Source of the DNA: an uncultured Candidatus Saccharibacteria bacterium
GTDB taxonomy: Bacteria > Patescibacteriota > Minisyncoccia > Phycocordibacterales > UBA918
DNA length: 64,000 bases
Reading direction: 5' to 3'
Assembly (NCBI GenBank): GCA_964608605.1
Contig: CAZSOS010000001.1
Span: forward strand, 117,888 to 181,887
Both the position numbers and the translations under genes were made by a program. Shown here in pieces: positions 7,893 to 47,986 of this stretch. A model generated the notes under the pieces. It did no database searches. It was given only the letters and a program-made list of their open reading frames with translations, and had not been told where the DNA came from. Numbering within the stretch: position 1 is the stretch's first letter; every line of letters begins with the position of its first letter.

Positions 7893-8678
7893 ATGTTCGC
7901 AAAGACTGCACACGCGGCCGAAGGCCTCTCCATACACCTGGCTCCCGACACGGTCACCACTCTATTTGGCGTACCCCTTACCAATACTTTGATGACAGTG
8001 TGGCTTACCATGGCGGTATTGATAGGATTGGCGCTACTGGTACGTAGCCGCCTGTCGCTAGTGCCGGGCAAGTTGCAGAATTTTTTCGAAATGGTCATCG
8101 GCGGGGTCTATGAATACATGGCCGACGTGCTGGAAAGCCGCCCTTTGGCGCGCAAATTCTTTCCGCTGGTGATGACCATCTTTTTGTTTATCCTTCTCAT
8201 GAACTGGATCGGTCTCCTGCCGGGCGTGGATTCCATCGGCATCCATAAAGAAGTGGAATCGCACGGGGAAGTGGTGCAGAAGCTGATACCATTTTTCCAT
8301 CCGGCCGCCACCGACCTCAACATCACCATCGCCTTCGCGCTGGTGGCCTTCGTGGCCATCGAGTTGGCCGGGGTGACGCTCTTAGGTTTCTTCAAGTACG
8401 CTGGCAAGTTCGTCAACTTCTCGTCGCCTCTAGCGTTCATCATCGGCCTCATCGAGCTGTTGTCCGAGATCGCGCGGCTGATCTCCTTTTCGTTCCGTCT
8501 ATTCGGAAACATCTTCGCCGGCAAGACGCTCTTGATGGTGGTGATGTTCCTGGCCACGCCTTACTTGCTGCCGGTACCGCTCATTGCCTATGAGCTGTTC
8601 GTGGGATTCATCCAGGCGTTCATCTTCGCCATCCTGACCTTGTATTTCATCAAGCTGGCGATCGAAGAACCGCACTAA
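7893..8678 (+). CDS. atpB: F0F1 ATP synthase subunit a
   Basis: RLFGNIFAG motif with essential Arg, 5 TM helices; first gene of atp operon. Confidence 0.9.
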   Translation: MFAKTAHAAEGLSIHLAPDTVTTLFGVPLTNTLMTVWLTMAVLIGLALLVRSRLSLVPGKLQNFFEMVIGGVYEYMADVLESRPLARKFFPLVMTIFLFILLMNWIGLLPGVDSIGIHKEVESHGEVVQKLIPFFHPAATDLNITIAFALVAFVAIELAGVTLLGFFKYAGKFVNFSSPLAFIIGLIELLSEIARLISFSFRLFGNIFAGKTLLMVVMFLATPYLLPVPLIAYELFVGFIQAFIFAILTLYFIKLAIEEPH

Positions 8679-8821
8679 TCGTGATCAGACGGGAGTCAGG
8701 CTTCAGGCTTGGTTCCCGTCTGCTCGTGAGCAGATTATTTAATAGCACTTAGCACTTAGGTTTTAGCGGTTAGGTGTGCCAGCCAAGCTGGCACACCGTG
8801 CTAAGAACCAAGTGCTAATAA

Positions 8822-9064
<243 letters not shown>

Positions 9065-9226
9065 AACTCCCGAAATTGGCGGCCTCACGCCCGCTTCCCT
9101 CAGCGTTTCGGTCGCTGGACAATTTGTCCCGCTTCTCTCAACGCTTCAGTCCAGCGAGCGTGGTCCCATCCAATTTCGTAAGTTTAAGATCTATACGCTA
9201 TCAGCTATTCGCTAAACGCTAACCTT

Positions 9227-9670
9227 ATGGACTCCCTTATCCAAGCCTTCGGCATCGATGCTCGTCTCATCACCATCCAGGTGCTGAACTTCATCGTGCT
9301 GGCCGGTCTCTTGAGCTACTTCCTCTACAAGCCGGTCTTGCGGCTTTTGGAAGAGCGGGAGGGAAAGATCAAGCAGGGTCTTGAAGACGCCGATAACGCC
9401 AAGAAGGCGCTCGCGGGCGCCGAGGAGGAGAAGCGGGAGATCCTGTCGGTCGCGCAGTCCAGCGCTGCTGACATGGAAAAGCGCGCCGTGGCTCACGCCC
9501 GCGAAAGCGGCGCCGCCATCGTCGACGCCGCCCACCAGTCGGCGGCGGACAAGATCAAGCAGGCCGAAGCGCGAGCTAAGGCCATCGAAGCCGAGGCGCT
9601 AAAGCAAAGCGAAGCCGAGGTCGCCAAGATGGCGGTCCTGGCCGCCGAAGCCATCCTTAAGAAGTCATAG
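9227..9670 (+). CDS. atpF: F0F1 ATP synthase subunit b
   Basis: N-terminal TM helix followed by long Ala/Glu/Lys-rich coiled coil; position in operon. Confidence 0.8.
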   Translation: MDSLIQAFGIDARLITIQVLNFIVLAGLLSYFLYKPVLRLLEEREGKIKQGLEDADNAKKALAGAEEEKREILSVAQSSAADMEKRAVAHARESGAAIVDAAHQSAADKIKQAEARAKAIEAEALKQSEAEVAKMAVLAAEAILKKS

Positions 9671-9676
9671 TCAGAC

Positions 9677-10051
9677 ATGAACGCGCAACTAAAACGATAC
9701 GTCGAAGCCGCGGCCGCCCTTCTCAAGGAGGGGATGGCCGTCGACGTGGTCCTCCGGAATCTGCGCCGGATCATGGACGACCGCGGCCACGGCAAGATGT
9801 ACCAAGCGGTAGCGCGGGCGCTGGCTCGGACCTATCCTTCGATCGAACGCTCCGTAACCCCGCTGTTGACCGTGGCCAAGGAGTCGGACGCCGCCAAGTA
9901 CCGACAGCTCGTCGGCGACAAGGATGTGGAGGTCAAGATAGACCCTTCGATCATCGGCGGCTACGTTCTGACCGAAAACTTCACCCGCCGGGACAATAGC
10001 TATCGATCCAAACTGCTCACGTGGTATCGGTCGGCTATTGCCTCAAAATAA
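9677..10051 (+). CDS. atpH: F0F1 ATP synthase subunit delta (short, 124 aa)
   Basis: C-terminal IDPSIIGGYVL OSCP/delta signature; operon position. Confidence 0.7.
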   Translation: MNAQLKRYVEAAAALLKEGMAVDVVLRNLRRIMDDRGHGKMYQAVARALARTYPSIERSVTPLLTVAKESDAAKYRQLVGDKDVEVKIDPSIIGGYVLTENFTRRDNSYRSKLLTWYRSAIASK

Positions 10052-10117
10052 AAAAGTAAATGTCAAAATAAAAATATAGTCTTTTGACATTTGAGTTTTA
10101 AATTTTAAATTAACAAC

Positions 10118-11686
10118 ATGAGTACCAACATCGTAGAGAAATTGAAGCAGGAGATCGCCGGGCTCGCCGCCGAAGCGCCGGCCGAGAAGGTGGGCGTCGT
10201 TACGGCCGTTTCCGACGGTATCGTCGAGATCGAAGGCTTGCGAGCGGCCAAGATGATGGAGATGGTCTCGTTCGACCAAAGCGAAGGACGTGAACTCAAG
10301 GAAGCCTTGGGCCATTCCGGCGCGCTCTTCGGTTTGGTACTCAACCTCGAGGAGGATGGCGTCAAGGCGGTGGTCTTGGGAGACGCCACCAAGGTGAAGG
10401 AGGGAATGACCGTGCGCCAGACCGGCCAGCTTTTGTCGATACCGGTCGGCGAGGGGATGATCGGTCGCGTGGTCAGCCCTCTCGGCGAGGCCATCGACGG
10501 GCTCGGTGCGATCAAGGGCAATAAGGACATGCCGATCGAGCGCGTGGCTTACGGCGTGATGGACCGTTCGGCGGTGAACGAGCCGCTTCATACCGGCATC
10601 AAGGCTATCGACTCGATGATCCCGATCGGCCGCGGCCAGCGCGAGCTCATCATCGGCGACCGCGGCACCGGCAAGACCACCATCGCCATCGACACCATCA
10701 TCAACCAGAAGTACGAGCCGAAGGAGAAGCGCCCGATCTGCATCTACGTGGCCATCGGCCAGAAGCGCAGTAAGACCGCTAGCCTCATGGCTAAGCTGGA
10801 GGCTGCCGGTGCCATGGAGTACACCATCATCGTCGCTACTTCGGCTTCCGAGGCCTCACCATTGCTCTTCTTGGCTCCCTTTGCCGGCGCCGCCATCGGT
10901 GAATACTTCATGGAGCAGGGACGTGATGTCCTAGTGGTCTTCGACGACCTTTCCAAGCACGCCAACGCCTATCGCCAGATGTCTCTCTTGCTCCGCCGTC
11001 CGCCGGGACGCGAGGCCTATCCGGGCGACATCTTCTACTTGCATTCTCGTCTTTTGGAGCGCTCCGCCAAGCTCTCCAAGGAGCTCGGCGGCGGATCGAT
11101 CACCGCGCTGCCGATCATCGAGACCCAGGAGGGAGACGTGTCGGCCTACATCCCGACCAACGTCATCTCCATTACCGATGGCCAGATATTCCTGGAAGGC
11201 GATCTCTTCAACAAGGGCATCCGCCCGGCTTTGAACGTCGGCATCTCAGTGTCGCGCGTGGGATCGAGTGCTCAGACAAAGGCCATGAAGAAAGTGGCTG
11301 GCAAGATTCGTCTGGAGCTGGCGCAGTTCCGCGAGCTCGAGGCTTTCATGCAGTTCGCCTCCGATCTCGATGAGGAGACCAAGGCCCGCATCGATTCCGG
11401 CCGCAAGTACGTGGAGCTTTTGAAACAGAGTCAGAACGCGCCGGTGCCGTTCTACGAACAGGTAGTGGCCATCTACGCCGCCAACTCCGGGATCTTCGAC
11501 GGCACCACCCCGGAGAAGGTGCGGGAGCTGGAAGCCGCTTGGATCGCGTTCTTGAAGCGTGACCGCGATGATATCATCAATGATATCAAGACCGGCCGCG
11601 AGCTCACTGACGAAATAGTCGGCAAGCTGGACACCGCCATCGGGGACTTCAAAGATTCGCACCCGCAATTCTATGGAATCGTGTAA
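10118..11686 (+). CDS. atpA: F0F1 ATP synthase subunit alpha
   Basis: Walker A GDRGTGKT, full-length alpha homology. Confidence 0.95.
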
Positions 11687-11790
11687 TTTTGAGTTTCAAA
11701 TTTCGAATTAATTTCTAATGAACTAATTTTGAAACATTCGGTTATTCAAAATTGTATCGAAATTCGAAAGTCATCATTCAAGATTCGCTT

Positions 11791-12699
11791 ATGGCATTAA
11801 AGCAAGTTAAAAACAAAATAATCGCCACCAAGAAGACCGGGCAGGTGACCAAGGCCATGGAGGCCGTTTCGGCGGTAAAGATGCGCAAAAGCCAAGAGAA
11901 GGCTTTCGTTGGCCGGCCGTACGTGCGCTCGGCGCTGCGCGTCTTAGCGCGCCTGAGCGCCTCCGAGGAGGGCCTTTCGCACGCGTTTGCCAAGAAGCGC
12001 GTGGGTGAAGGGAAGCACCTTCTGGTGGTCGTGACTAGCGACAAAGGCTTGGCCGGTTCGGTGAACAGCGCCGTGCTGAAGAAGGTGGACGAACTACAAG
12101 CTCGGGGAGAGGAACTCGAGGTCATCGCCGTTGGCCGCAAGGCGGTCGAGCACGCTCTCCGGATCAAAGCGCCGCTTCATGGGGAGTATCTAAACGTCTC
12201 CGATGACGTAACCATCGCCGACACGCGAGCCATTTCGGAGACTATCTTCGAACTTTATGGGGATGAGCGATTCAAGAAAGTGTCAGTGGTCTATCAGAAC
12301 TTCCTGTCCACCTTCGAGCAGGCACCGACGGTGCGACAGATCTTGCCGCTTGATCCTTCGGAGATCGGCTACGTGATGAGTGGCATCAAGCCGAAAAGCG
12401 GCAAATGGAGCGAAGAGGCGGGTTCGGCCGAAGGCCGCGCCGACTACTTGATCGAACCGTCGGCGGAAACCGTTCTCGAGACCCTGGTGCCGCAACTCAT
12501 CAACATCATGGTCTACCACGCGCTCATCGAGAACAAGGCTTCCGAGCACTCGGCCCGCATGGTGGCCATGAAGAACGCCACCGACAAATCGAAGGAGGTG
12601 GTGAAGAGCCTGACCATCAAGTTCAATAAGGCCCGTCAGGCCGCCATCACCGCCGAAGTTTCCGAAATCACGGCAGGGGTCGAGGCGATGAACACTTAA
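11791..12699 (+). CDS. atpG: F0F1 ATP synthase subunit gamma
   Basis: MALKQVKNKIIATKKTGQVTKAMEAVSAVKMRK N-terminus and C-terminal ITAEVSEI helix; start at ATG 11791 rather than 11752. Confidence 0.85.
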   Translation: MALKQVKNKIIATKKTGQVTKAMEAVSAVKMRKSQEKAFVGRPYVRSALRVLARLSASEEGLSHAFAKKRVGEGKHLLVVVTSDKGLAGSVNSAVLKKVDELQARGEELEVIAVGRKAVEHALRIKAPLHGEYLNVSDDVTIADTRAISETIFELYGDERFKKVSVVYQNFLSTFEQAPTVRQILPLDPSEIGYVMSGIKPKSGKWSEEAGSAEGRADYLIEPSAETVLETLVPQLINIMVYHALIENKASEHSARMVAMKNATDKSKEVVKSLTIKFNKARQAAITAEVSEITAGVEAMNT

Positions 12700-12716
12700 A
12701 AATTAACTTTTAATAA

Positions 12717-14132
<1,416 letters not shown>

Positions 14133-14253
14133 CCTCATCTGCTTTGTTGCGCTTCGGAAAATAGTGCTCGCTGGACTGTCTTTGTCTCACTCACATTATT
14201 TTCCTTGCGCGCCTCGCATCTGAGGCCATCTAACCCCTTCAATCAAATACACT

Positions 14254-14496
14254 ATGAAACTACTCAATCTAACCATTTCCCGCGTCGACATGCCGTTGTT
14301 CGACGGCCCCGTAGCCTTTGTGACCGTGCCCGGTCTGGCCGGGGAAATGACCATCATGGCCGATCATGCCGCCCTGATCTCGCCGCTTAAGGCCGGCACT
14401 ATCGTGATCAGGCGGGAAGACGGGGAAGATGAGAGTCTCCAGATCGAAACCGGAACCCTCGAGATCAGCCATAACCAGGCGACGATATTGGTCTAG
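14254..14496 (+). CDS. atpC: F0F1 ATP synthase subunit epsilon (short, beta-sandwich only)
   Basis: operon position, 80 aa beta-rich N-terminal domain; lacks C-terminal helical hairpin. Confidence 0.75.
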   Translation: MKLLNLTISRVDMPLFDGPVAFVTVPGLAGEMTIMADHAALISPLKAGTIVIRREDGEDESLQIETGTLEISHNQATILV

Positions 14497-14521: not shown

Positions 14522-14555
14522 CAACGCCGCCGCCCGTAGGGCGGCGGCGTTTTCG
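14522..14555. terminator. rho-independent terminator after atpC
   Basis: AACGCCGCCGCCCgtaGGGCGGCGGCGTTTTCGG. Confidence 0.75.
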
Positions 14556-14556
14556 G

Positions 14557-14562
14557 TATAAT
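14557..14562 (+). promoter_or_regulatory. -10 box TATAAT 8 nt upstream of giant-protein ATG
   Basis: ggTATAATaaaagggtATG. Confidence 0.45.
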
Positions 14563-14570
14563 AAAAGGGT

Positions 14571-17500
14571 ATGCACCAAAGACGCGCCGCGTTTATCGGC
14601 GGTCTCAGTCTTTTTCTGTTAGTGTTGGCGATCTGCTTCTGCGTTGGCTTTGTTTTTTCAGCGCGTCAGACACCTGAAGAGAACGCGGTGAGTTCCGGTG
14701 TAGAAAAGGCAGAGCCGGTCTCGTTCTCTCCTTGGCGGACTCTCTTCTGCGGTCTGCGCTCGCTTGTCCTTTGGCCTTGTGCTGAACCGACTTCTCTCCC
14801 AGAACCTTCTATGCCCGCTCCAACCACTTCCATTGAGACGCGGCCGGTTCCGGCAGTCGATCTAGATGTCGCTACCACCTCTGCTTCAACCACGTCTTCT
14901 TCACCCTCCACCCAATACATAACTAACGAAACCATAGTCCGCCCCCTCGAACGCGAAATCATCCGCGAAATCACCATCCGCGACCAGGCCGTCGACACTT
15001 CCCGTTTCGTCACCCGTACTGAATATGATAGGCAAGTAGACGCGCTTCTGCGGTCCATTGAGAGTAAAGGTGGTAGTACCACTATAGTGGATCAAGGTGG
15101 CGGTGGAGGAGGTCCTGAAACCGACCCTGTCTTCATCGCTTCCGCCGCTTTTACCATTACTGGTGGTGATCTTTCTGATTGGAATCAGGCTTTTGGATGG
15201 GGTGATCACACCCAGGCTGGTTATCTAACTTCGTTCACCGAAAATGACCCACTTTTCTCCTCGTCCACCGCCGCTTCCATCACCAATACGGATGTCTCAA
15301 ATTGGAACCAATCTTTTGCTTCTTCAAGCGTGCTATCTATATCAGTGTCTGGTCTCATGGCGTCGTCGAGCGCTTGGGACCAGGCTTTTGGGTGGGGCGA
15401 CCACTCCCAAGCCGGATACCTCACTTCGTTCACCGAACTCGACCCCATCTTCAGCACCTCACCGGCCTTCGGCATCAGCGGCACCAATATCAGCAATTGG
15501 AATAGTACGTACACCACCGTCACCGCCTCCTCTTCACAGTGGGGAAGCGCGTACACCTTGGCCACTCTCTTGAACTCCGCTTCCTCCACCTGGAACCAAG
15601 CCTACTCCTGGGGCGACCACTCCACGGAGAACTACATCCAACAGAACACCGACGCCACTCTCGACAACGCCACCACCACCAACCTCACCACCAACACACT
15701 CACGCTCTCTGGAGCGCTCAAGACTGGTCTCTCAGACGGTTGCGTTGAAGTAGCTGGCGGTGTCCTCACTTCTCTGGGAGTGGCATGTGGCACTGGCGGC
15801 GGGGGACTGACAAACCTCAATGGCCTCACCTCTTCCTCGCAATCTTTCGCCACTTCCACTTCCGGCGGTCTTTCTCTTAACATCACCTCATCGGGAGGGG
15901 TACATACGTTTTCTGTGGGACTGCAGGCTGGTCGGACCCTGCCGCTTACCGCTAGTACCACTGAGTGGGCCAACATCAGGAACCTGGTCAACGCCTCCTC
16001 TTCACAATGGGGAAGCGCGTACACCTTGGCCAATCTCCTCAACAGCGCCTCCTCCACCTGGAACGCCGCCCATGCCTCCACCACCGCCCTCACGCCCTCG
16101 TACCTCCGCGGACTCTTCAATGCCGGTACCGGCCTCTCGTACGGCACCACCACTGGCACCTTCACCAACACCGGCGTCCTGTCGATCGGAGGGCTGAGCG
16201 GGAGCGTGGCGACGAGTTCGTTGGGGCTTGGTAACAATAGCTTCATCGGATTGTCCGACACCCCAGGTTCATATAACGCCGATCGCGTCTTGTTCACCAA
16301 TGCTGCCGGCAACGCTTTGACCGACTCCGCCAACTTCACCTATAACGGCAGCTCCGAGTTGCTGACGATCAGTGGCAACCTCGCCACCGGCTACGGCATC
16401 TCTTTGGGGTCTTCCGGAGGCATATATGCCAGTGAAGATATCCTGACCGCGGGCAACGGCATCAATATCATCGGTACCGAACACGCGGTTTTAAGGACCG
16501 GTAACGCTTACGTCTCTCTCACTGATGATGGAATCGATACTTTTGCCAATATTGCTGGTGATGGTGTCCAGCTCTACTCCCATTTTGATGACATCACCCT
16601 TCATTCCACTAATAACATCATTCTCACCGGCATCGGCAACGTCGGTATCGGCACCACCACGCCATCGCACAAGCTGACGGTGGCAGGAAACACTCTTATT
16701 GCTGGGAATGCCACTACTACGGGCAACCTAGTGGTGCAAGGGGCGGACATCGTGCTGGGAAACACTGGCATGGGTTACATAAGTAGTGCTTCAGGTGGAG
16801 TCTTGATCCTGGGGGGCGCCTCTAACGGTACCGGTGAAAATCTACGTTTTGATTTTGATATCAGTACTGGTCTTGATTTAGATGTGGTAACAGTAAGTTC
16901 TGGCACCGGTGCTAATCATTTGTTATTCCTCATGGGCCTGGAGACGATGGGAAATCTTAAGGTCGGCGGCAATATCACCGATGCTACCTGGCAGGGAAAT
17001 GATATCGACATCTCCGACTACACCAACCTCGGCGTCACCGCCACTGGTCTTTCTCTTTCTGGAGATAACATCGCTCTGACTGCTGGCTATTCCATACCAC
17101 TCACCTCTTCCACCTCAGAATGGACCACAGCGTATTCCTGGGGCGACCACGCCACGCAAGGCTACTTGACCGGCCTCGGCACTTCCACCTTCAACGGCAA
17201 CATTTCGATGGCCGGACATATCATTCCGGCGGCCGACATCACCTACGATCTCGGTTCACCCACTAGCATGTGGCGGGACGTCTACATCGGTCCGGGTTCT
17301 CTCTATATCAATGGCAAGAAGGTGTTGGAGGACGTGTCGGATACCATTACGTTGCGTACCGATCACAACCAGAATCTCGCGGTGCAGACCAGCGGTATCG
17401 GCAGTATTCATGTCAATGCTTCATCCACCGGCGGCATCACCATGGAGTCCATCTCAGGTAATATCAACATCACCTCCGCCTCTGGCAACCTCAACATCGG

Positions 17501-20500
17501 CACCACCGGCAGCGGTCAGCTCAACCTCGGCACCATTAACCAAGGCGTCTGGCACGGCACCGACGTCGACATCTCCGACTACACCAACCTCACCGTCTCT
17601 GCCACCGGCCTCACTTTGAACAACGACGCCATAGAGCTTGCTTCCGGCTATGCTATTCCACTCACCGCCAGCACCACTGAATGGATGAGCGCTCGCACTG
17701 ACGTGCTCGCGCTCACGGCCTCCTCCACCCTTTGGGATTCTTTCTACAACACCCCTTCATCCCGCCTCACCGCCGGCACCGGTCTCTACTGGAGCGGCAA
17801 TACTCTAAACGCTTCGTCGTCGGCTGACATCAACTACTGGACGTTGTCGGGAGGCAATGTTTATAGGGCTTCCGGCAATGTGGGTATCGGGACTTCCACT
17901 CCCGCTGCTAAGCTGGATGTTCAAGGTAGCTGGTTGCGTCTCCTTAATCCAAGTGGGGGATCGAGCATAACCTCGCAAAGCGTAGGAGGGGAGGCTATTT
18001 TCGCGGCGCGCAATTCGGCCAACGCTTGGACCTCCGGTGTAAACACCAGCGGACAGTATTTTATCTACGACGAGACCAATGCCAGCATACCTTTCCGTAT
18101 CTATCCTAGTTCTGCGAACAGTGTCATGTCAATCAATGGTAGTAATGTTGGTATCGGCACTACGACTCCGAACTCTAAGCTTCACCTAGCCGATGGATAC
18201 ATGCTTGTAACGCGCTCAGAGACCGCTAGTCAACCTAACTTTTATCAAGCCTTGAACTCCAGCGGCAGCGGCTTCGGTCTTAGATATACCGAGGATGCTA
18301 TCGGAAACATCCCGGCAGATGCCTGGCAGTTCAGATTATCCGGAACCAACGTCAGCCCGCTCATCTTCTCAACTTTCGACTCGACTCCGATCCTGACCAT
18401 GGCGACTTCCGGCAATATTGGCATTGGTACTACGACGCCTAACGCGGCGTTGGACATCAGTTCCACAGCTACGGGGGCTGTCACGGCAGCCTTCTTTAGA
18501 TCGAACCCAGGTGGTGCTGGGGCGGCGAATCAAAATACGATTGTGCTCGATAACCTGCAGGGTTCCGCTAACTTCAAAAATTCCATCCGACTCGCCAGTA
18601 ACGGGGCTTTGAAGTGGTCATTCGGAAATGATTACTACGGCGCTGGAGAGCAGAATTTCTTCATACATGACGCGGTATCCAACGCGGCGCGTCTCTTGAT
18701 AGATCCGGACGGCAACGTCGGTATCGGGACCACCAGTCCAAACAGTATCTTGAATATCAACACCGGCCTCTCCGGTTTTATGGGCCTTCCCGCACACGGC
18801 AGTGTAGGCTTCGGTAATTTCAGTTCTGGTAATACGGCACCTAGCATGATGGCCCGCTCGGATAATTCGACGGCCCTCCGTCTAATTAGCTTAGCAAGCA
18901 ATAGCAACACTGACGCCGACATGAACTTCGATGTCCGTGAGAACGACAACACCGACTTCGCCACCTTGACCAGTCAAGCGTTCAGCTTCAGCCGTTTTGG
19001 CAATAGCCTACTCACTATCCTACGCAGCGGCAACGTTGGCATCGGTACCTCGACGCCCAGTGCGAAGCTTAGTGTACAAGGCACCATTCGGGCAGAGAGT
19101 GTCTCATCCATTAGTACAGGGTCTGGCGTTGAAATCAACTACAACACCGGCACCGGACTCGGTAAGATCCAAGCCTATGATCGAGACGCAAGTACTTTTA
19201 AGGACTTGTGGCTAGATGGCTCTACGCTCACTCTCGCTACTGGCGGTGCTTCTCGCGTGACCATCCTTCCTTCTTCAGGAAATGTCGGTATAGGAACCAC
19301 TACTCCTCAAGCTACACTTCATCTCGGCACTTACGGCGCCACCCTCCGCCTCAATAGCCCAATAACTGGTTCTGGCATATACGGATACAATGACGCTAGT
19401 GGCGGTTTAGCTTACTCCTTCACGCGTCAATCCAACGACCTTCATATCACCGGCGCGACCGGCATCGGGTTCCAGTCTAACGCAGGTTCAGGCATAAATA
19501 CTGCTAGCACCTCGATGTATATCTCTTCCGCCGGCAACGTGGGCATCGGCACTACAACCCCAGCGAGCAGATTAAGCGTGTTTTCAACTGACAGCGTTAT
19601 CGCGGAATTCACCGCTTCGTCATCGGCAGCTACTCGAATGAAGCTAAATACCACAGGTTCCAATAAAAACGTGGGACTTAGTCTGGCAATAGACGGCATT
19701 ACTCGATGGACCAACGCCGCCTATCTCCCGAACGGGACTAACTATGACTACACGATATGGAATGACGCACTTAATAGTCCAGCCCTCCTCATTGACGGTG
19801 ACACGAACAACATCGGTATCGGCACCCTTAGTCCTGCATACAAACTCCATCTGGCCTCCGGCACGACGACGTTGGCCATGGTACCGTGGCAATCGGATGA
19901 TCTGGTAATACAAGGAGGTCTGGCAGAACAGAACGGCATCTCCATAGTCAACGGCTCCAATAAATACCTCACCTTCGTTGATGACAACATCGGCATCGGC
20001 CAGATCGGCTATTACTGGAACGGCAACATGAACTTCCTCACCGACGGCACGGAGCGAATGGTTATTAATGCCACCGGCAACGTCGGCATCGGGACCACAT
20101 CACCACTTACGAAACTCGACGTGAAGGGCTCGATCTTGATCGATCAAGGATCGAACGGACGTCTCATATTCAATAATTATACTTCTTTGTCAGATCATGG
20201 ACCATATATCGGCTACTCTACAGGTAACAATTCCATGGACATCGTGTCCGGAATGAACCCCAATGCCAATGGCGTTGGCACGGGTGGTATCCGCTTCGGT
20301 CGAGCCAGCGGTTCGTCGTGGGCCACGACCATGGTCATCGACGGCTCCGGATTGGTCGGTATAGGTACCTCAACACCTACACACAGTCTCACCGTAGGCG
20401 CGGTCAATTCGACCGTTGATCGGATTATCCGGGTCGTATCGCAAAATAACGTTGGCCTTATCCTTGAAGCCGATACGGATAATCTTACCGAGACACATAA

Positions 20501-21470
20501 CCCGTACGTGAAGATGTCGCAAGACGGTGGGGCGGTGGCTAGTATCATGGGTATGACCGGTGGTGCCAACATCGATCCTGAGGGTAATACCTTCACCGGC
20601 GGACACGATAATGCCCTGGTCTTGATCAACCAGTATGCCGGTTCAATACAGTTGGGTACTAACGGAGCTCCCCGGCTCTCTATCGTTTCTTCGGGTAATG
20701 TCGGCATCGGCGCCTTGTCTCCCTCCGCCCAACTCCACACCACCGGCACCGTCCGTTTCGCCAATTTCGGCGCCGGCACCCTCCAGACCGACGCCTCCGG
20801 CAACCTCTCAGTCTCCTCAGACACCCGTCTTAAAGACCTCGAAGGTACCTTCGACCGCGGACTCGAAGCCATCTTAGGCATAGAACCCATCATGTACCGC
20901 TGGAACGCCGCTTCCGGCTACGACCGTTCTACTCTATACGCCGGCTTCTCCGCCCAGAACGTGGAAGACTTCATCCCCGAAGCCGTGGGTACCAACCCTG
21001 ACGGTTTCCTCTCGTTGTCTGATAGACCGCTCCTGGCGGCGGTGATCAACGCGGTGAAGGAGATATACGGCCAATTGACGACTTTGTCCGATAAGATCGC
21101 TGGCTTTGCCGACAGCTTTATGTCCGCCAGCATCACCGCCACCGACAGGATCTGCGTGGGAGACACATGCGTTACCGAAGGTGAGTTGAAGGCCGTGTTG
21201 GATATGGTCGGTAGCAATGGTGGAGGCTCTAACGATGGAAATGGCAGCTGGGGCGGATCTTCCGGCGGCGGCGACACCACGACCGGTACTTCGACCGCCT
21301 CCACCACGCCGCCGGTTACCTCGACCTCGACACCGCCCGCCACTCCCGTATTAGGCTGTATGGACCCTCTGGCTTCGAACTTTGCTCCCGCGGCCACGGA
21401 GGATGATGGTTCGTGCGTATTTCCGCCCGCGCCGCCGGACGAGTCGGCCACCACCACTCCGGCGGAGTGA
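14571..21470 (+). CDS. giant secreted/surface repeat protein (2299 aa): N-terminal TM/signal, Pro/Thr-rich linker, tandem repeat modules, ~12 GNVGIGTTTP-type repeats, C-terminal phage tailspike-like intramolecular chaperone (peptidase S74-like) domain and Cys motif tail
   Basis: uninterrupted ORF; internal repeats visible at protein level; SSDTRLKDLEG...IMYRWNAASGYDRSTLYAGFSAQNVEDFIPEAV motif near C-terminus. Confidence 0.85.
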   Translation: MHQRRAAFIGGLSLFLLVLAICFCVGFVFSARQTPEENAVSSGVEKAEPVSFSPWRTLFCGLRSLVLWPCAEPTSLPEPSMPAPTTSIETRPVPAVDLDVATTSASTTSSSPSTQYITNETIVRPLEREIIREITIRDQAVDTSRFVTRTEYDRQVDALLRSIESKGGSTTIVDQGGGGGGPETDPVFIASAAFTITGGDLSDWNQAFGWGDHTQAGYLTSFTENDPLFSSSTAASITNTDVSNWNQSFASSSVLSISVSGLMASSSAWDQAFGWGDHSQAGYLTSFTELDPIFSTSPAFGISGTNISNWNSTYTTVTASSSQWGSAYTLATLLNSASSTWNQAYSWGDHSTENYIQQNTDATLDNATTTNLTTNTLTLSGALKTGLSDGCVEVAGGVLTSLGVACGTGGGGLTNLNGLTSSSQSFATSTSGGLSLNITSSGGVHTFSVGLQAGRTLPLTASTTEWANIRNLVNASSSQWGSAYTLANLLNSASSTWNAAHASTTALTPSYLRGLFNAGTGLSYGTTTGTFTNTGVLSIGGLSGSVATSSLGLGNNSFIGLSDTPGSYNADRVLFTNAAGNALTDSANFTYNGSSELLTISGNLATGYGISLGSSGGIYASEDILTAGNGINIIGTEHAVLRTGNAYVSLTDDGIDTFANIAGDGVQLYSHFDDITLHSTNNIILTGIGNVGIGTTTPSHKLTVAGNTLIAGNATTTGNLVVQGADIVLGNTGMGYISSASGGVLILGGASNGTGENLRFDFDISTGLDLDVVTVSSGTGANHLLFLMGLETMGNLKVGGNITDATWQGNDIDISDYTNLGVTATGLSLSGDNIALTAGYSIPLTSSTSEWTTAYSWGDHATQGYLTGLGTSTFNGNISMAGHIIPAADITYDLGSPTSMWRDVYIGPGSLYINGKKVLEDVSDTITLRTDHNQNLAVQTSGIGSIHVNASSTGGITMESISGNINITSASGNLNIGTTGSGQLNLGTINQGVWHGTDVDISDYTNLTVSATGLTLNNDAIELASGYAIPLTASTTEWMSARTDVLALTASSTLWDSFYNTPSSRLTAGTGLYWSGNTLNASSSADINYWTLSGGNVYRASGNVGIGTSTPAAKLDVQGSWLRLLNPSGGSSITSQSVGGEAIFAARNSANAWTSGVNTSGQYFIYDETNASIPFRIYPSSANSVMSINGSNVGIGTTTPNSKLHLADGYMLVTRSETASQPNFYQALNSSGSGFGLRYTEDAIGNIPADAWQFRLSGTNVSPLIFSTFDSTPILTMATSGNIGIGTTTPNAALDISSTATGAVTAAFFRSNPGGAGAANQNTIVLDNLQGSANFKNSIRLASNGALKWSFGNDYYGAGEQNFFIHDAVSNAARLLIDPDGNVGIGTTSPNSILNINTGLSGFMGLPAHGSVGFGNFSSGNTAPSMMARSDNSTALRLISLASNSNTDADMNFDVRENDNTDFATLTSQAFSFSRFGNSLLTILRSGNVGIGTSTPSAKLSVQGTIRAESVSSISTGSGVEINYNTGTGLGKIQAYDRDASTFKDLWLDGSTLTLATGGASRVTILPSSGNVGIGTTTPQATLHLGTYGATLRLNSPITGSGIYGYNDASGGLAYSFTRQSNDLHITGATGIGFQSNAGSGINTASTSMYISSAGNVGIGTTTPASRLSVFSTDSVIAEFTASSSAATRMKLNTTGSNKNVGLSLAIDGITRWTNAAYLPNGTNYDYTIWNDALNSPALLIDGDTNNIGIGTLSPAYKLHLASGTTTLAMVPWQSDDLVIQGGLAEQNGISIVNGSNKYLTFVDDNIGIGQIGYYWNGNMNFLTDGTERMVINATGNVGIGTTSPLTKLDVKGSILIDQGSNGRLIFNNYTSLSDHGPYIGYSTGNNSMDIVSGMNPNANGVGTGGIRFGRASGSSWATTMVIDGSGLVGIGTSTPTHSLTVGAVNSTVDRIIRVVSQNNVGLILEADTDNLTETHNPYVKMSQDGGAVASIMGMTGGANIDPEGNTFTGGHDNALVLINQYAGSIQLGTNGAPRLSIVSSGNVGIGALSPSAQLHTTGTVRFANFGAGTLQTDASGNLSVSSDTRLKDLEGTFDRGLEAILGIEPIMYRWNAASGYDRSTLYAGFSAQNVEDFIPEAVGTNPDGFLSLSDRPLLAAVINAVKEIYGQLTTLSDKIAGFADSFMSASITATDRICVGDTCVTEGELKAVLDMVGSNGGGSNDGNGSWGGSSGGGDTTTGTSTASTTPPVTSTSTPPATPVLGCMDPLASNFAPAATEDDGSCVFPPAPPDESATTTPAE

Positions 21471-21532: not shown

Positions 21533-22039
21533 ATGGAAATCGCATATATCATCAGCATGATCGTCATGTCCTTCGCGGTATCGCTGGGCGTGGGATGTTC
21601 GACTGTCGCCGTCACTCAGTTCTTCGCGGCCATCAAGGACGGCGGCATCAATGAGGCCGAGCGGAAGATGTTGGGCGTGGTGTACTTCCTGCTTAGGGTG
21701 GCCATGGCTGGCATCTTGCTTACCATGATCGCCCAGGGAGCGATCGTCTATTACATCTCCGGCAACTTCCTCTTTATCTCGCCGTTCTTCATGGCTCTGT
21801 ACACCGTGGTGGGCGTGTTGTTCCTCAACGCCATCGGTATGACCTGGCGCTTGATACCGAGCTCGCTCGGACCGGCCATTCAGGCCTCGAGCTGGTATTC
21901 GCTCGGCTTCCTCATGGCCCTGGTGCCGCTTGGGCTCACGGCCTTCACCTACACGCAGTTCCTGCTCGTATACGCCGGCGTTATGCTGATCACCATCGCC
22001 GCTCTCAATATATTGATGGGGTATCTAAGAAAGGACTAG
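21533..22039 (+). CDS. hypothetical membrane protein (168 aa, 4-5 TM)
   Basis: hydrophobic ORF directly downstream of giant protein. Confidence 0.55.
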   Translation: MEIAYIISMIVMSFAVSLGVGCSTVAVTQFFAAIKDGGINEAERKMLGVVYFLLRVAMAGILLTMIAQGAIVYYISGNFLFISPFFMALYTVVGVLFLNAIGMTWRLIPSSLGPAIQASSWYSLGFLMALVPLGLTAFTYTQFLLVYAGVMLITIAALNILMGYLRKD

Positions 22040-22050
22040 GGAAAGGATAG

Positions 22051-22086
22051 AAAAAGCGGCGGGGCCAGAGGCCCCGCCGCTTTTTA
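22051..22086. terminator. bidirectional terminator between convergent genes
   Basis: AAAAAGCGGCGGGGCCagagGCCCCGCCGCTTTTT. Confidence 0.8.
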
Positions 22087-31397: not shown

Positions 31398-34214
31398 ATG
31401 CATAAAAAGTTCGATCATCAGGCCATAGAGAAGAAATGGCAGGAAAAATGGCGGGAGAGCGACCTCTATCGGACCGATGGCGATTCCGCCAAGGAGAAGG
31501 TCTACGTGCTCGACATGTTCCCGTATCCATCCGGCGAAGGCCTCCATGTCGGACACCCGAAGGGCTACATCGCCACCGACGTCTACTCACGTTTTAAAAA
31601 GATGAGCGGCTTCGAAGTGCTGCACCCGATGGGTTGGGACGCTTTCGGCCTGCCGGCGGAGAACTTCGCCATCAAACACAAAGTGCATCCGCGAGTAGCG
31701 GTGGAGAAGAACATCGCCAATTTCAAGGAGCAGCTGGCGCATCTGGGCTTCAATTACGATTGGTCGAGGGAGATCAACACCACCGATCCCGAATACTACA
31801 AGTGGACGCAGTGGATCTTCCTGAAGCTCTTGGAGAAAGGTCTGGCCTACGAGTCGCGCGAGCCGATCAACTGGTGTCCTGGCTGTCAGACGGGCCTGGC
31901 CAATGAGGACCTTGAAAGCGACGGTACTTGCGAGCGCTGCGGCTCGGTCGTCGAGAAACGGCCGATGCGCCAGTGGGTCTTGAAGATCACCGCCTATGCC
32001 GATCGGATGCTCGAAGATCTGGAGACGCTGACCGCCTGGCCCGAACACATCAAAGAAGCGCAACGCAACTGGATCGGCCGTAGCGAAGGCGCCGAGATCG
32101 ACTTCAAACTTACCAGCGGCGAGACCGTTACTGTTTTCACAACCCGGCCGGATACGCTCTTTGGCGCTACCTACCTGGTGCTAGCGCCCGAGCATGAATT
32201 GGTTGCTAGATTAGCGATCGAAAACAAAGACGAAGTGGCGGGGTACGTGCGAGCGACCGCCGAAAAGACCGAGATCGATCGCACCAACGCCGAGAAGGAA
32301 AAGACCGGCGTGGAATTAAAAGGCGTCAAGGCGATAAATCCAGGGAATGGCGAAGAAATTCCGGTCTTTATCGCCGACTATGTCCTCTCTCACTACGGCA
32401 CCGGTGCCATCATGGCCGTCCCGGCGCACGATGAGCGTGACGGCGCATTCGCGCGGAAGTTCGGTTTGCCGATTAAAGTGGTGATCGCACACGAATACGT
32501 CAACATCAAAGAAGGAGTAGAGACATTGGAGCGTGGTGATGTCGTCGATCTCATCATTGAGCACCCCACGAACGGTACCTTTTTGTTGCAACGTGAGAAA
32601 GATGAACATGGGCCAGATCATGTTCACTTTGTAGGCGGCGGTACGGAAGGGGAGTCGCATGAGGACGCCATTGCCAAAGAGTTAGTCGAAGAAACTGGTT
32701 TCCAGAATTTTGAGATCATTGGCACGCCAGTAAACGTGACCAACGCCTTCGCGTATCGGCACAATAAGAACAAGAATCAAAAAACCAGAAGTCACTTCTA
32801 CTATATAAAGCTGAAAAATCTGGACCAGATCCCTTCTGAGATCGAGGAAGGTAAACACACGATCGAGTGGGTATCGAAAGAACAGCTGGACAAGCTGATC
32901 ACTTGGGACGCGCACAGGGCCGCCTGGAATAATTTTATTGGCAAGGAATATCTGACCAAGAGTGGGATGCTGGTCTTTTCAGACGAGTTTTCTGGTATGG
33001 ATTCTGAAGAGGCCAAGAAATCTATTGTGGAGAAGGTGGGCGGACGGATGACGAATACCTACCGTTTAAATGACTGGGTGTTCTCACGCCAGCGGTATTG
33101 GGGCGAGCCCATTCCGGTGATTCACTGCTCCAATTGCGGCGTGGTGCCGGTTCCCTATGACCAACTGCCGGTGAAGCTGCCTGAAGTGGAACATTACGAG
33201 CCGACCGGTACGGGAGAGTCGCCGCTGGCGGCTATCGACGACTGGGTCAATGTGGACTGCCCGAAGTGCGGCGGCCCGGCCAAGCGCGAGACCAATACTA
33301 TGCCGCAATGGGCCGGTTCTTCGTGGTATTACCTCCGCTTCATCGATCCGAAGAACGACCAGGATTTGATAGACCCGGAGAAGGAAAAGAAATGGGCGCC
33401 GGTGGACGTCTACGTGGGCGGCGACCACGCCGTCAGGCACCTGATCTACGCTCGCTTCTGGCATAAATTCCTCTACGATCTGGGCGTGGTTTCCACCATC
33501 GAGCCTTTCATGCGGTTGGAGTTCCTGGGCTTCATCCTGGCCGAGGATGGACGCAAGATGTCCAAGCGCTGGGGCAATATCATCAATCCGGACGATATCG
33601 TGAAGCAGAATGGCGCGGACGCTTTGCGCGTCTACGAGATGTTCATGGGTCCGTTCGAGAACACGGTGGCCTGGAGCACCAATGGCCTTGTGGGAGCGCA
33701 ACGTTTTGTCGAGAGAGTGAACGGTCTTTCCGAGGACATCACGGAAGCTGAACCAGCCGAGACCTCGCGGCTGCTGCATAAGACTATCAAGAAGGTGCGC
33801 GATGACATCGAATCGTTCAAATTCAACACGGCGGTGAGCGCCATGATGATCTTCGTGAACGCGGCGGAAAAGAGCGGACTATCTCAGGGATCATACGAGA
33901 CCTTCCTGAAGCTCTTGGCACCCTTCGCGCCGCATCTTTGCGAGGAGCTGTGGGAGGCGGCCGGACACGGGACGTCGATCCATCTGGAAGAATATCCGAG
34001 CTTCGATGCCGCTTTGGCTAAGGACGATCTGGTGACCATCGGCGTGCAGATAAACGGCAAAGCCCGCGGATCCATCACCATCGCGCCGGAGGCGGATGAA
34101 GCGGCCGCGATCGCCGCCGCCAAGGAGGAACCCGGCTTGGCGAAGTATCTGGAAGCGGGGGAGTTGAAGAAGGTGGTCTATGTTCCGGGTCGCATCCTGA
34201 ACCTGATCGTCTGA
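31398..34214 (+). CDS. leuS: leucine--tRNA ligase with an embedded Nudix hydrolase domain (aa ~364-518)
   Basis: class I HVGHP (HIGH) and KMSKR motifs, editing-domain TTRPDT..HDERD; insert contains Nudix box GGGTEGESHEDAIAKELVEETGF. Confidence 0.95.
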   Translation: MHKKFDHQAIEKKWQEKWRESDLYRTDGDSAKEKVYVLDMFPYPSGEGLHVGHPKGYIATDVYSRFKKMSGFEVLHPMGWDAFGLPAENFAIKHKVHPRVAVEKNIANFKEQLAHLGFNYDWSREINTTDPEYYKWTQWIFLKLLEKGLAYESREPINWCPGCQTGLANEDLESDGTCERCGSVVEKRPMRQWVLKITAYADRMLEDLETLTAWPEHIKEAQRNWIGRSEGAEIDFKLTSGETVTVFTTRPDTLFGATYLVLAPEHELVARLAIENKDEVAGYVRATAEKTEIDRTNAEKEKTGVELKGVKAINPGNGEEIPVFIADYVLSHYGTGAIMAVPAHDERDGAFARKFGLPIKVVIAHEYVNIKEGVETLERGDVVDLIIEHPTNGTFLLQREKDEHGPDHVHFVGGGTEGESHEDAIAKELVEETGFQNFEIIGTPVNVTNAFAYRHNKNKNQKTRSHFYYIKLKNLDQIPSEIEEGKHTIEWVSKEQLDKLITWDAHRAAWNNFIGKEYLTKSGMLVFSDEFSGMDSEEAKKSIVEKVGGRMTNTYRLNDWVFSRQRYWGEPIPVIHCSNCGVVPVPYDQLPVKLPEVEHYEPTGTGESPLAAIDDWVNVDCPKCGGPAKRETNTMPQWAGSSWYYLRFIDPKNDQDLIDPEKEKKWAPVDVYVGGDHAVRHLIYARFWHKFLYDLGVVSTIEPFMRLEFLGFILAEDGRKMSKRWGNIINPDDIVKQNGADALRVYEMFMGPFENTVAWSTNGLVGAQRFVERVNGLSEDITEAEPAETSRLLHKTIKKVRDDIESFKFNTAVSAMMIFVNAAEKSGLSQGSYETFLKLLAPFAPHLCEELWEAAGHGTSIHLEEYPSFDAALAKDDLVTIGVQINGKARGSITIAPEADEAAAIAAAKEEPGLAKYLEAGELKKVVYVPGRILNLIV

Positions 34215-34295: not shown

Positions 34296-35324
34296 ATGAT
34301 CACCTTTAAACCGAAGCAGATAACCAAGAAGCTCTTGTCATCCCTTCCGGACCGGGCCCGCGACGTGCTCGAGAAGCGTTACGGACTGGGCGCTGACGCC
34401 GAAGCTTATACTCTAGAATCCATCGGCCAGGCCTACGGCATCACCCGCGAACGCGTGCGCCAGATCGAGGGTTACGGCATCGGTTCCATCCAGAAATCTG
34501 ATGCTTACAAGGAGTTCGCTCCGGTCTTCGAGGAGCTCCACCGGCTGATCGGAGAGCTCGGCGGCGGCGTCATCGCCGAGGATCATCTCTTGGACATGCT
34601 GGCCAAGGATCAGTCGACCCGCAACCACATCTTCTTCCTCCTGGTAGTGGGTGATCCTTTCTACCGTTCCAAGGAGAACAACTCCTATCTGCACCGCTGG
34701 TTCACCGAGAAGAAGATCGCTGACGCGGTCGAGAAGGCTCTCAAGAACGTGCATCAGTCCTTAGAGCGCGACCAGCTCATCACCGAAGAGGAGATCTTGA
34801 CCCGCTTCCGCGACCAGCTCATCGAGATCGCCGATCGTCATGACGAGGATATCTTGAAGCGGTGGCTCCTCATCTCCAAGGACATCGCCCGGAACCCCCT
34901 CGGCGAATGGGGTCATGCCACCAGCCCGAACGTGAAGGTGAAGGGCATCCGCGACTACGCTTACCTGGTGGTGAAGCGCCACGGTTCTCCCATGCACTTC
35001 CGCGAGGTGGCTAAGGCCATCGAAGAGCTTTTTAATCGCAAGGCCCACATCGCCACTACCCACAACGAGCTCATCAAGGACAAACGCTTCGTTCTAGTCG
35101 GCCGCGGACTCTATGCTCTCTCCGAGTGGGGCTACTCCGCCGGCGTCGTTAAGGACGTGCTGCGCGACATTCTCGAGAAGCACGGTCCTCTGACCCGCGA
35201 GGAGATCATCGACAAGGTCCGCAAGGAACGCTACGTGAAGGACAACACTATCATCGTCAACTTGCAGGACACCAATCTTTTCAAGAGACTGGGGAACGGC
35301 GCTTACACGCTGGTGACCGAGTAA
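34296..35324 (+). CDS. putative DNA-binding protein: sigma-70 region-4-like HTH followed by HARE-HTH-like modules
   Basis: AYTLESIGQAYGITRERVRQIE resembles sigma70 r4; HFREVAKAIEELF and LTREEIIDKVRK...GNGAYTLV resemble RpoE/HARE-HTH. Confidence 0.5.
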   Translation: MITFKPKQITKKLLSSLPDRARDVLEKRYGLGADAEAYTLESIGQAYGITRERVRQIEGYGIGSIQKSDAYKEFAPVFEELHRLIGELGGGVIAEDHLLDMLAKDQSTRNHIFFLLVVGDPFYRSKENNSYLHRWFTEKKIADAVEKALKNVHQSLERDQLITEEEILTRFRDQLIEIADRHDEDILKRWLLISKDIARNPLGEWGHATSPNVKVKGIRDYAYLVVKRHGSPMHFREVAKAIEELFNRKAHIATTHNELIKDKRFVLVGRGLYALSEWGYSAGVVKDVLRDILEKHGPLTREEIIDKVRKERYVKDNTIIVNLQDTNLFKRLGNGAYTLVTE

Positions 35325-47902: not shown

Positions 47903-47945
47903 ACAAAGAGCGCGGGGCCGAAGGCCCCGCGCTCTTTGTTCAAAA
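47902..47945. terminator. rho-independent terminator after alaS
   Basis: AAAGAGCGCGGGGCCgaaGGCCCCGCGCTCTTT. Confidence 0.8.
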
Positions 47946-47986
47946 CTCGCTTCGTGTTTTCGCCATCACCCCGCTATAATAGGGGC

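Follow-up and report, generated by a model that had tools for sequence, protein, structure and literature searches.

The mosaic adhesive trimeric (MAT) fibres of Bdellovibrio bacteriovorus are a family of 21 signal-peptide-bearing proteins of ~1,000 amino acids (aa), in which a conserved, beta-rich N-domain of ~130 aa is followed by a trimeric beta-helix stalk that meanders and bears capping loops (Caulton et al. 2024, PMC10769870). The tips of these fibres are interchangeable, and 13 of them are S74 domains bearing the motif SDxxxK (PMC10769870). One such fibre, Bd3182, for which structures have been deposited (PDB 8OJN/8ONB/8ONC), cleaves itself at S782; the substitution S782A blocks the reaction, and the tip of the mature fibre ends at A781 (PMC10769870). 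The supplementary list of the same paper comprises predators and Omnitrophota and names no Patescibacteria (PMC10769870). The gene considered here lies in a stretch of 64,000 nucleotides, hereafter the window, from contig CAZSOS010000001.1 of assembly GCA_964608605.1, and encodes a giant protein of the Patescibacteria that carries an S74 intramolecular chaperone domain near its C-terminus.

Two further systems frame the comparison. In the phage T5 protein pb1, the chain is cut between Thr1263 and Ser1264 by the pair Ser1264/Lys1269, and only after the trimer has folded correctly (PMC4690869). The cut also requires an arginine from a neighbouring chain, which couples cleavage to correct trimer folding (PMC4690869). 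Among bacteria of the Candidate Phyla Radiation (CPR), Vampirococcus lugosii encodes membrane-associated giant proteins of 1,392-4,163 aa that were proposed to form a fibrous coat and to serve in host attachment (PMC8080830).

The S74 domain and its predicted cleavage site

The original prediction, made from the letters of the window, placed a peptidase S74-like chaperone domain at the C-terminal end of a giant protein. Profile, homologues, catalytic dyad and fold all agree with this, and the flagged stretch is a genuine S74 intramolecular chaperone domain. In the profile search that the prediction had proposed as its check, aa 2083-2139 align to positions 1-57 of the 58 in Pfam PF13884 (Peptidase_S74, "chaperone of endosialidase"), scoring 30.6 bits for the whole protein (E 4e-7) and 34.0 bits for the C-terminal fragment alone, with a gathering score of 22. 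When aa 2021-2299 were used as query against 5.8 billion proteins, 169 homologues were retrieved at E <= 1e-3 (best 9e-58), nearly all of which already carry a PF13884 annotation. The domain call in itself is a matter of routine annotation. The window contains no second S74 domain, and the one that is present directly follows ~1,000 aa of beta-helix modules homologous to the trimeric beta-helices of Bd3182 and Bd2133.

The Ser/Lys dyad, whose alignment had likewise been proposed as a check, is readily located. In an alignment of 119 of the 169 homologues, the motif residues are near-invariant: Ser2083 and Asp2084 are each retained in 114 of 115 sequences and Lys2088 in 116 of 117. Searched against the PDB, a profile of the ten closest homologues places S-D-x-x-x-K opposite ASDERLK in a phage tail fibre (8JOV, E 5e-6), opposite SSDRRIK in the gp37 long tail fibre of phage S16 (6F45) and opposite the site at which MyRF is cut (7DC3). 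The structural evidence points the same way. The AlphaFold2 model of the domain, computed as a monomer, is confident, and a fold search pairs it with each of the four S74 chaperones of solved structure, the MyRF ICA domain being the closest structural match. The fold comprises a mixed alpha/beta part and a long helix, the element that forms the trimeric coiled coil in S74 chaperones.

The peptide quoted in the original prediction, SSDTRLKDLEGTFDRGLEAILGIEPIMYRWNAASGYDRSTLYAGFSAQNVEDFIPEAVGTNPDGFLSLSDRPLLAAVINAVKEIYGQLTTL, is present verbatim at aa 2082-2172 (nucleotides 20814-21086) of an open reading frame (ORF) on the plus strand, 14571..21470, whose product of 2,299 aa deserves the epithet giant. 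The boundaries given for the domain, 20812-21120, need adjustment. The start is 2 nt out of frame (the in-frame position is 20814), such that literal translation gives stop codons; the end does fall inside the domain, within its long helix, but the domain reaches 21128.

The scissile bond is predicted to be that between Ser2082 and Ser2083, because of the analogy with the sites cut in T5 pb1 and Bd3182. Since the giant protein shares an export signal, stalk modules, an S74 tip and the catalytic motif with the MAT fibres, it most likely works as they and T5 pb1 do, and a mechanism of export, trimerisation and self-cleavage is well supported as a prediction from sequence. In such a scheme, the hydrophobic N-terminal segment would take the chain through Sec, after which the chain would be held in the membrane or released there, with a Pro/Ser/Thr-rich linker crossing the wall. 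The S74 chaperone (aa 2083-2186) would bring three chains into register and template the folding of the interdigitated beta-helix modules upstream of it. When the trimer has reached its correct fold, Lys2088 would activate Ser2083, which would cut each chain at the predicted bond and free a trimer of the C-terminal fragment. This fragment would comprise 217 aa (2083-2299), with modules beyond the canonical chaperone, and is thus longer than the ~150 aa originally expected to be released. What remains would be a mature fibre of ~2,050 residues per chain, with a distal tip ending in ...GNLSVS.

Architecture of the putative fibre precursor and its family

The features of the locus are collected in the table below. 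At the N-terminus, the segment at aa 4-34 is the only strongly hydrophobic one in the giant protein, as Kyte-Doolittle values above 1.6 occur solely in windows starting at aa 4-16. It may act either as a cleavable signal or as an uncleaved anchor. Beyond it, the chain is strongly repetitive. Copies of the WGDH-type repeat reappear at aa 810-869, and a windowed blastp self-comparison of the middle stalk pairs aa 794-856 with 972-1043 and aa 448-484 with 1020-1059. The first GNVGIGTTTP loop occurs at aa 689. In the region of tandem beta-helix modules, each module starts with G-N-V-G-I-G-T-x-x-P-x-x-x-L, of which ten were counted, and the region terminates in a conserved pre-cleavage strand, ...TVRFANFGAGTLQTDASGNLSVS.

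Features of the giant-gene locus (positions in the window; aa numbering refers to the giant protein)
Feature	Position	Strand	Description
Terminator-like hairpin	14528..14549	+	GC hairpin followed by a T-run, in the gap that separates the end of atpC (14496) from the giant ORF
Giant ORF	14571-21470	+	2,299 aa, stop codon counted in span; putative phage-tail-fibre-like surface fibre precursor
N-terminal segment, aa 1-31	14571..14663	+	Positive start (HQRR), then hydrophobic stretch; candidate signal peptide or membrane anchor
aa 32-182	14664..15116	+	Pro/Ser/Thr-rich low-complexity linker (32-115); charged segment and Gly run (116-182)
aa 183-520	15117..16130	+	Repeats of ~65-72 aa with W-x-x-A-[FY]-x-W-G-D-H
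aa 521-1096	16131..17858	+	Middle stalk, mixed, internally duplicated
aa 1097-2082	17859..20816	+	Beta-helix modules in tandem, about ten in number and 85-180 aa long, homologous to the beta-helix/capping-loop modules of Bd3182 and Bd2133
S74 chaperone, aa 2083-2186	20817..21128	+	Pfam core aa 2083-2139, mixed alpha/beta; then long helix aa 2151-2186
S-D-T-R-L-K motif	20817..20834	+	Predicted catalytic Ser2083 (20817-20819) and Lys2088 (20832-20834)
Cys hairpin, aa 2193-2216	21147..21218	+	Small beta-hairpin and helix, ICVGDTCVTEGELKAVLDMVG (ICVGDTCVTEGELKAVL); Cys2195 and Cys2200
aa 2217-2299	21219..21467	+	Gly/Ser/Thr/Pro linker, predicted disordered (2217-2262); Cys motif; Pro-rich end (2283-2299); pLDDT <56
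Cys-bounded motif, aa 2263-2282	21357-21416	+	C-MDPLASNFAPAATEDDGS-C, i.e. CMDPLASNFAPAATEDDGSC; modelled with low confidence
168-aa ORF	21533..22039	+	Recurrent hydrophobic stretches; judged by eye to be a multi-pass membrane protein
Bidirectional terminator-like hairpin	22051..22085		Strong, 16-bp stem with 11 GC pairs; ends both the giant-gene unit and the AcrB/HlyD unit that converges on it

The body of the protein has few relatives of solved structure. In a phmmer search its only sequence relatives in the PDB were Bd3182 (8OJN, E 1.8e-5, aa 1647-1768) and Bd2133 (8OND, E 4.3e-5, aa 1441-1614). The capping loops of the three proteins align, with GNVGIGALSPSAQLH of the giant protein (GNVGIGTxxPxxxLH) set against GNLGLGTAAPTSALH of Bd2133 and GRVGVGTTAPTSALH of the Bd3182 chain in 8OJN. 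Families of phage tail-fibre proteins in PHROG match aa 183-243, 1099-1446 and 1817-1861 (phrog_9942, phrog_9729 and phrog_18345, tail fibre protein; E 1e-26 to 3e-24), the first of these stretches, within the N-terminal WGDH repeats, being covered by phrog_9729. NCBIfam gave no match for the giant protein, nor for three other ORFs of the window without an assigned function. A diversity-generating retroelement was considered and rejected: the DNA repeats of the gene are its own internal modules, and no template/variable pair occurs elsewhere in the window.

The tail beyond the S74 helix has modules of its own. The Cys hairpin lies in a region modelled with good local confidence (aa 2191-2220; block values of the predicted local distance difference test, pLDDT, of 82, 92 and 76). 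Its pattern, C-x(3-12)-C-[VIL]-T-x-x-x-L, is common to a "long-tail" subset of the homologues and falls outside the canonical chaperone. Two classes of tail are seen among the homologues, a short one of ~90-105 aa and a long one of 190-390 aa, the latter often with the Cys hairpin and sometimes with DUF5011 or Big domains after S74. By tblastn, the tail region was matched in 30 of the related loci described below. The terminal Cys-bounded motif of 20 residues was found in none of the 77 related loci and matches no Pfam family; it may be a small module closed by a disulfide.

To find these loci, two conserved peptides drawn from a trimmed 10-sequence alignment were searched against 185,579 species-representative genomes, which returned 77 related loci; the best is 70% identical, so that the source genome itself is not among them. 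Named Patescibacteria account for 47 of them (Kaiser-, Paceibacteria, Parcu-, Taylor-, Nomura-, Morani- and Saccharibacteria) and other named phyla for 20, including Omnitrophota, Bdellovibrionales, Verrucomicrobia, Bacteroidota and Methylocystis, while 10 bear no phylum-level name. The family is multi-copy, with at least 7-8 fibre genes in single metagenome-assembled genomes (MAGs). Relatives of the body of the giant protein were detected by tblastn in 51 of the 77 loci. The complete relative ORFs of at least 500 aa, 42 in number, range in length between 539 and 2,913 aa (median 1,156), and truncated ORFs exceed 3,400 aa; a hydrophobic N-terminus is present in 34 of the 42. NCBI annotation already names such relatives "tail fiber domain-containing protein". 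Homologues of the WGDH repeats end in C1q (PF00386, a TNF-like fold), DUF1566 (PF07603), Mtd_N (PF18454), TIGR02145 or S74 tips. Judged from these sequences, a common stalk appears to carry exchangeable adhesive tips, as described for MATs.

Function, alternatives and chromosomal setting

Taken together, the giant protein is probably the precursor of a trimeric cell-surface fibre that is matured by its S74 domain, and plausibly a fibre for attachment to a host. Its most likely role is contact with another cell or surface, given its analogy with MAT fibres, the adhesive tips of its relatives, the proposal made for giant surface proteins of the CPR (PMC8080830) and the epibiotic lifestyle of cultivated Patescibacteria.

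Several observations weigh against this reading. The residues that could sense folding are one of them: Arg2062 (94/112) and Asp2074 (109/113) are conserved at -21 and -9 from the catalytic Ser, as candidate sensors only, and their order and spacing differ from those of the T5/K1F pair, which could not be mapped onto the giant protein (in T5, Arg1250 and Asp1239 lie at -14 and -25; PMC4690869). The 20 residues that precede the scissile Ser have a pLDDT of only 61-66 in the monomer model, and trimerisation, cleavage and the exact bond are inferred from homology. At the other end of the chain, aa 1-180 are without a tblastn match in any of the 77 related loci, and a Pro/Ser/Thr-rich linker follows the signal where MAT fibres have their conserved beta-rich N-domain of ~130 aa, which is probably absent from the giant protein. 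The 217-aa tail exceeds that of canonical chaperones and contains extra modules. As for function, the ~30 residues before the cut are strongly conserved across relatives, which is unexpected for a determinant of host specificity, and a search of the available literature found no paper linking S74 or tail-fibre proteins to Patescibacteria, so that the adhesive role is drawn purely by analogy.

The most serious alternative accepts a trimeric surface fibre matured by S74 and makes it a structural element of the envelope, such as a spacer, a glycocalyx-like coat or an S-layer-like scaffold, and not an adhesin for host or prey. It is the less likely account. A distal tip that is strongly conserved and not hypervariable among distant relatives would suit a structural part. 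Thick fibrous coats in Vampirococcus have been attributed to giant membrane proteins (PMC8080830), and relatives of the gene also occur in free-living Methylocystis, Flavobacteriales and Saprospirales. On the other hand, those homologues of the stalk modules whose structures are solved belong to fibres that handle prey and have ligand clefts along the beta-helix (PMC10769870). The stalk repeats are shared with proteins bearing C1q, C-type-lectin-like DUF1566 and Mtd_N adhesive tips, and genomes differ widely in how many copies they hold and how long these are, as expected of proteins engaged in interactions. Should the fibre bind ligands, the lateral surfaces of its variable beta-helix modules would be likelier sites than the tip, because the tip before the cut is so highly conserved and a similar site was proposed for the Bd3182 cleft (PMC10769870).

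A second alternative inverts the purpose of the cut. As in MyRF, cleavage might serve mainly to free a functional soluble trimer composed of S74, the Cys hairpin, the linker and the Cys motif, or the tail might stay bound as the real tip. The length of this tail, compared with ~90-105 aa in canonical relatives, speaks for it, as do the existence of a long-tail subclass with a conserved Cys hairpin and, at times, DUF5011 or Big domains, and the fact that the closest structural match, the MyRF ICA domain, is used to release a functional fragment. However, the greater part of the extra tail lacks conservation and is predicted to be disordered, all bacterial and phage systems characterised so far discard the chaperone fragment (PMC10769870, PMC4690869), and the sequence beyond the S74 domain contains no transmembrane segment or anchor, which together leave this possibility improbable. 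That the S74 domain merely folds and trimerises a protein that has lost cleavage and stays full length is very unlikely, because the conservation of intact Ser2083, Asp2084 and Lys2088 throughout the family would be needless in a non-catalytic module, even if the upstream sensor residues do not map onto the T5/K1F scheme.

The gene's position on the chromosome bears on whether it belongs to a virus at all. Upstream of it lie atpB, atpF, atpA, atpG, atpD and atpC (7893-14496), and downstream, in convergent orientation, an AcrB/HlyD efflux pair; farther out are a UvrA fragment, UvrC, Ddl, YchF, LeuRS, AlaRS, MnmA, YceG and DnaK/DnaJ. A scan of the ORFs over ~15 kb to each side revealed no gene for a capsid, terminase, tail tube or integrase and no further phage gene, and in place of a phage structural gene cluster the flanks consist of housekeeping genes. 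The AtpD of the window is 89-90% identical to proteins of Candidatus Paceibacterota and 86-88% identical to those of Nomurabacteria and the "Patescibacteria group". A DUF5671 protein is also encoded in the window, and such proteins are typical of Patescibacteria. A MAG of Candidatus Kaiserbacteria (RYN_395, locus L020) is syntenic, with the order UvrA-UvrC-Ddl ... S74 fibre - AtpD (76% identical) ... AcrB - HlyD. Because of these housekeeping flanks, the AtpD identity and the synteny with the Kaiserbacteria MAG, the giant gene is taken to have resided for long in the chromosome of a Paceibacteria/Kaiserbacteria-like lineage of the Patescibacteria.

The original prediction had thought of phage tailspikes, a setting that does not fit: the gene is chromosomal in Patescibacteria, and its product has a putative N-terminal anchor and resembles a MAT fibre. 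That it might encode the tail fibre or tailspike of a phage, prophage, tailocin or extracellular contractile injection system lodged in the chromosome, with S74 maturing a virion part as in K1F, T5 and S16, is accordingly hard to credit. Several parts of the protein do match PHROG tail-fibre families, S74 was first defined in phage proteins (PMC4690869), and a weakly baseplate-wedge-like ORF is present 28 kb downstream. Against these stand the lack of phage genes in the scanned flanks, the hydrophobic export or anchor segment, which is absent from virion fibres, the recurrence of an S74 fibre in the same housekeeping neighbourhood of the Kaiserbacteria MAG, and relatives that are multi-copy and mostly have a signal-like N-terminus.

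Within its neighbourhood the giant gene forms a unit of its own, set apart from the ATP-synthase operon by the hairpin that follows atpC. A perfect TATAAT is found at 14557-14562, right after this terminator hairpin and 8 nt before the giant-gene ATG. A Shine-Dalgarno sequence at its usual spacing does not fit into this gap, and the mRNA may be leaderless or nearly so. The 168-aa ORF downstream is probably co-transcribed with the giant gene, since the two share the terminator at 22051-22085. It has no match in Pfam, NCBIfam or PHROG, and when a conserved partner gene was sought, a homologue of it was found in 0 of the 77 related loci. In the Kaiserbacteria MAG, the fibre gene (L020 8054-10657) encodes 867 aa and precedes atpD, not following atpC as in the window, and a 701-aa SLT-domain protein (lytic transglycosylase) follows atpD. 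Fibre genes of this neighbourhood appear to have been gained, lost or resized within a stable housekeeping frame.

Some other ORFs of the window deserve mention in their own right. Directly after the alanyl-tRNA synthetase gene, a 429-aa ORF (49101-50390, plus strand) weakly matches Baseplate_J (PF04865, E 6e-4, below threshold) and also phrog_6, "baseplate wedge subunit" (E 1.2e-6); it is isolated in a housekeeping context, and the 385-aa ORF preceding it (47936-49093, plus strand) is without a family. In the leucyl-tRNA synthetase (31398-34214, plus strand), aa 383-504 match a NUDIX hydrolase domain (PF00293, E 1.9e-12); this fusion or insert, which is unusual, sits just past the editing-domain match (aa 223-367). 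A 342-aa protein (34296-35324, plus strand) combines an N-terminal Sigma70 region 4 (PF04545) with HARE-HTH (PF05066), an unusual arrangement for a sigma-related protein.

If the giant protein is indeed an S74-matured attachment fibre, several consequences follow. Bd3182, with 922 aa, is reported to be ~55 nm long; on that scale, a fibre of 2,299 aa would measure ~100-150 nm, comparable to the diameter of the cell. A chaperone known from phage tailspikes would be at work in an anchored cellular protein of the Patescibacteria, a group thought to live attached to other microbes, and how its members recognise and hold their hosts is an open question. The many such genes of widely varying length in related Patescibacteria would then provide a testable list of candidate host-recognition proteins. 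A bolder generalisation can be offered only tentatively, as it is more doubtful than the reading of the single protein: Patescibacteria may carry multi-gene families of trimeric fibres, derived from phage tail fibres, matured by S74 and ranging from 0.5 to >3.4 thousand residues, that serve as organelles of host recognition and form the counterpart of MATs in ultra-small epibionts. In this proposal a second function would fall to the S74 fragment released in the long-tail subclass, which carries the Cys hairpin and the terminal Cys motif.

Comparison with described systems

Among described proteins, the S74 chaperones of phages share the domain with the giant protein and differ from it in their setting. 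The K1F endosialidase (3GW6), the L-shaped tail fibre pb1 of T5 (4UW8), the neck appendage of GA-1 (3GUD) and gp37 of S16 (6F45) are all parts of virions, whereas the giant protein is not; it has an N-terminal membrane or export segment, and its pre-cleavage residues differ from theirs. The fragment it is predicted to release is 217 aa long, compared with 133 aa in T5. Eukaryotic MyRF, the Myelin Regulatory Factor whose ICA domain is represented by 7DC3, is anchored at its C-terminal side and releases an N-terminal transcription factor. In the giant protein, by contrast, the putative anchor is N-terminal and the piece predicted to be released is the C-terminal chaperone fragment, and the remainder of the two proteins is unrelated.

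The giant surface proteins of the CPR, exemplified by those of Vampirococcus lugosii, are likewise very large and membrane-associated, and likewise belong to ultra-small epibiotic bacteria. Their domains are WD40, PKD, integrin, fibronectin and DUF11, and an S74 or tail-fibre architecture is not described for them in PMC8080830.

The resemblance to MAT fibres goes further. In both cases the fibre is encoded by a cell, has an N-terminal export signal and a beta-helix stalk with the capping-loop motif, and ends C-terminally in an S74 domain with SDxxxK. Both come in multi-copy families within a genome, and both have stalk modules in common with proteins that carry other adhesive tips. The differences lie in scale, setting and additional parts. 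With 2,299 aa the giant protein is well above the ~1,000 aa of MATs, it is encoded by a monoderm-like member of the Patescibacteria and not by a Gram-negative predator, and it adds the WGDH repeats as well as a tail with a Cys hairpin and a terminal Cys motif. On present evidence, the giant protein appears to be a further cellular fibre of the S74-terminated, tail-fibre-like kind, and its closest kin would be the MAT family.

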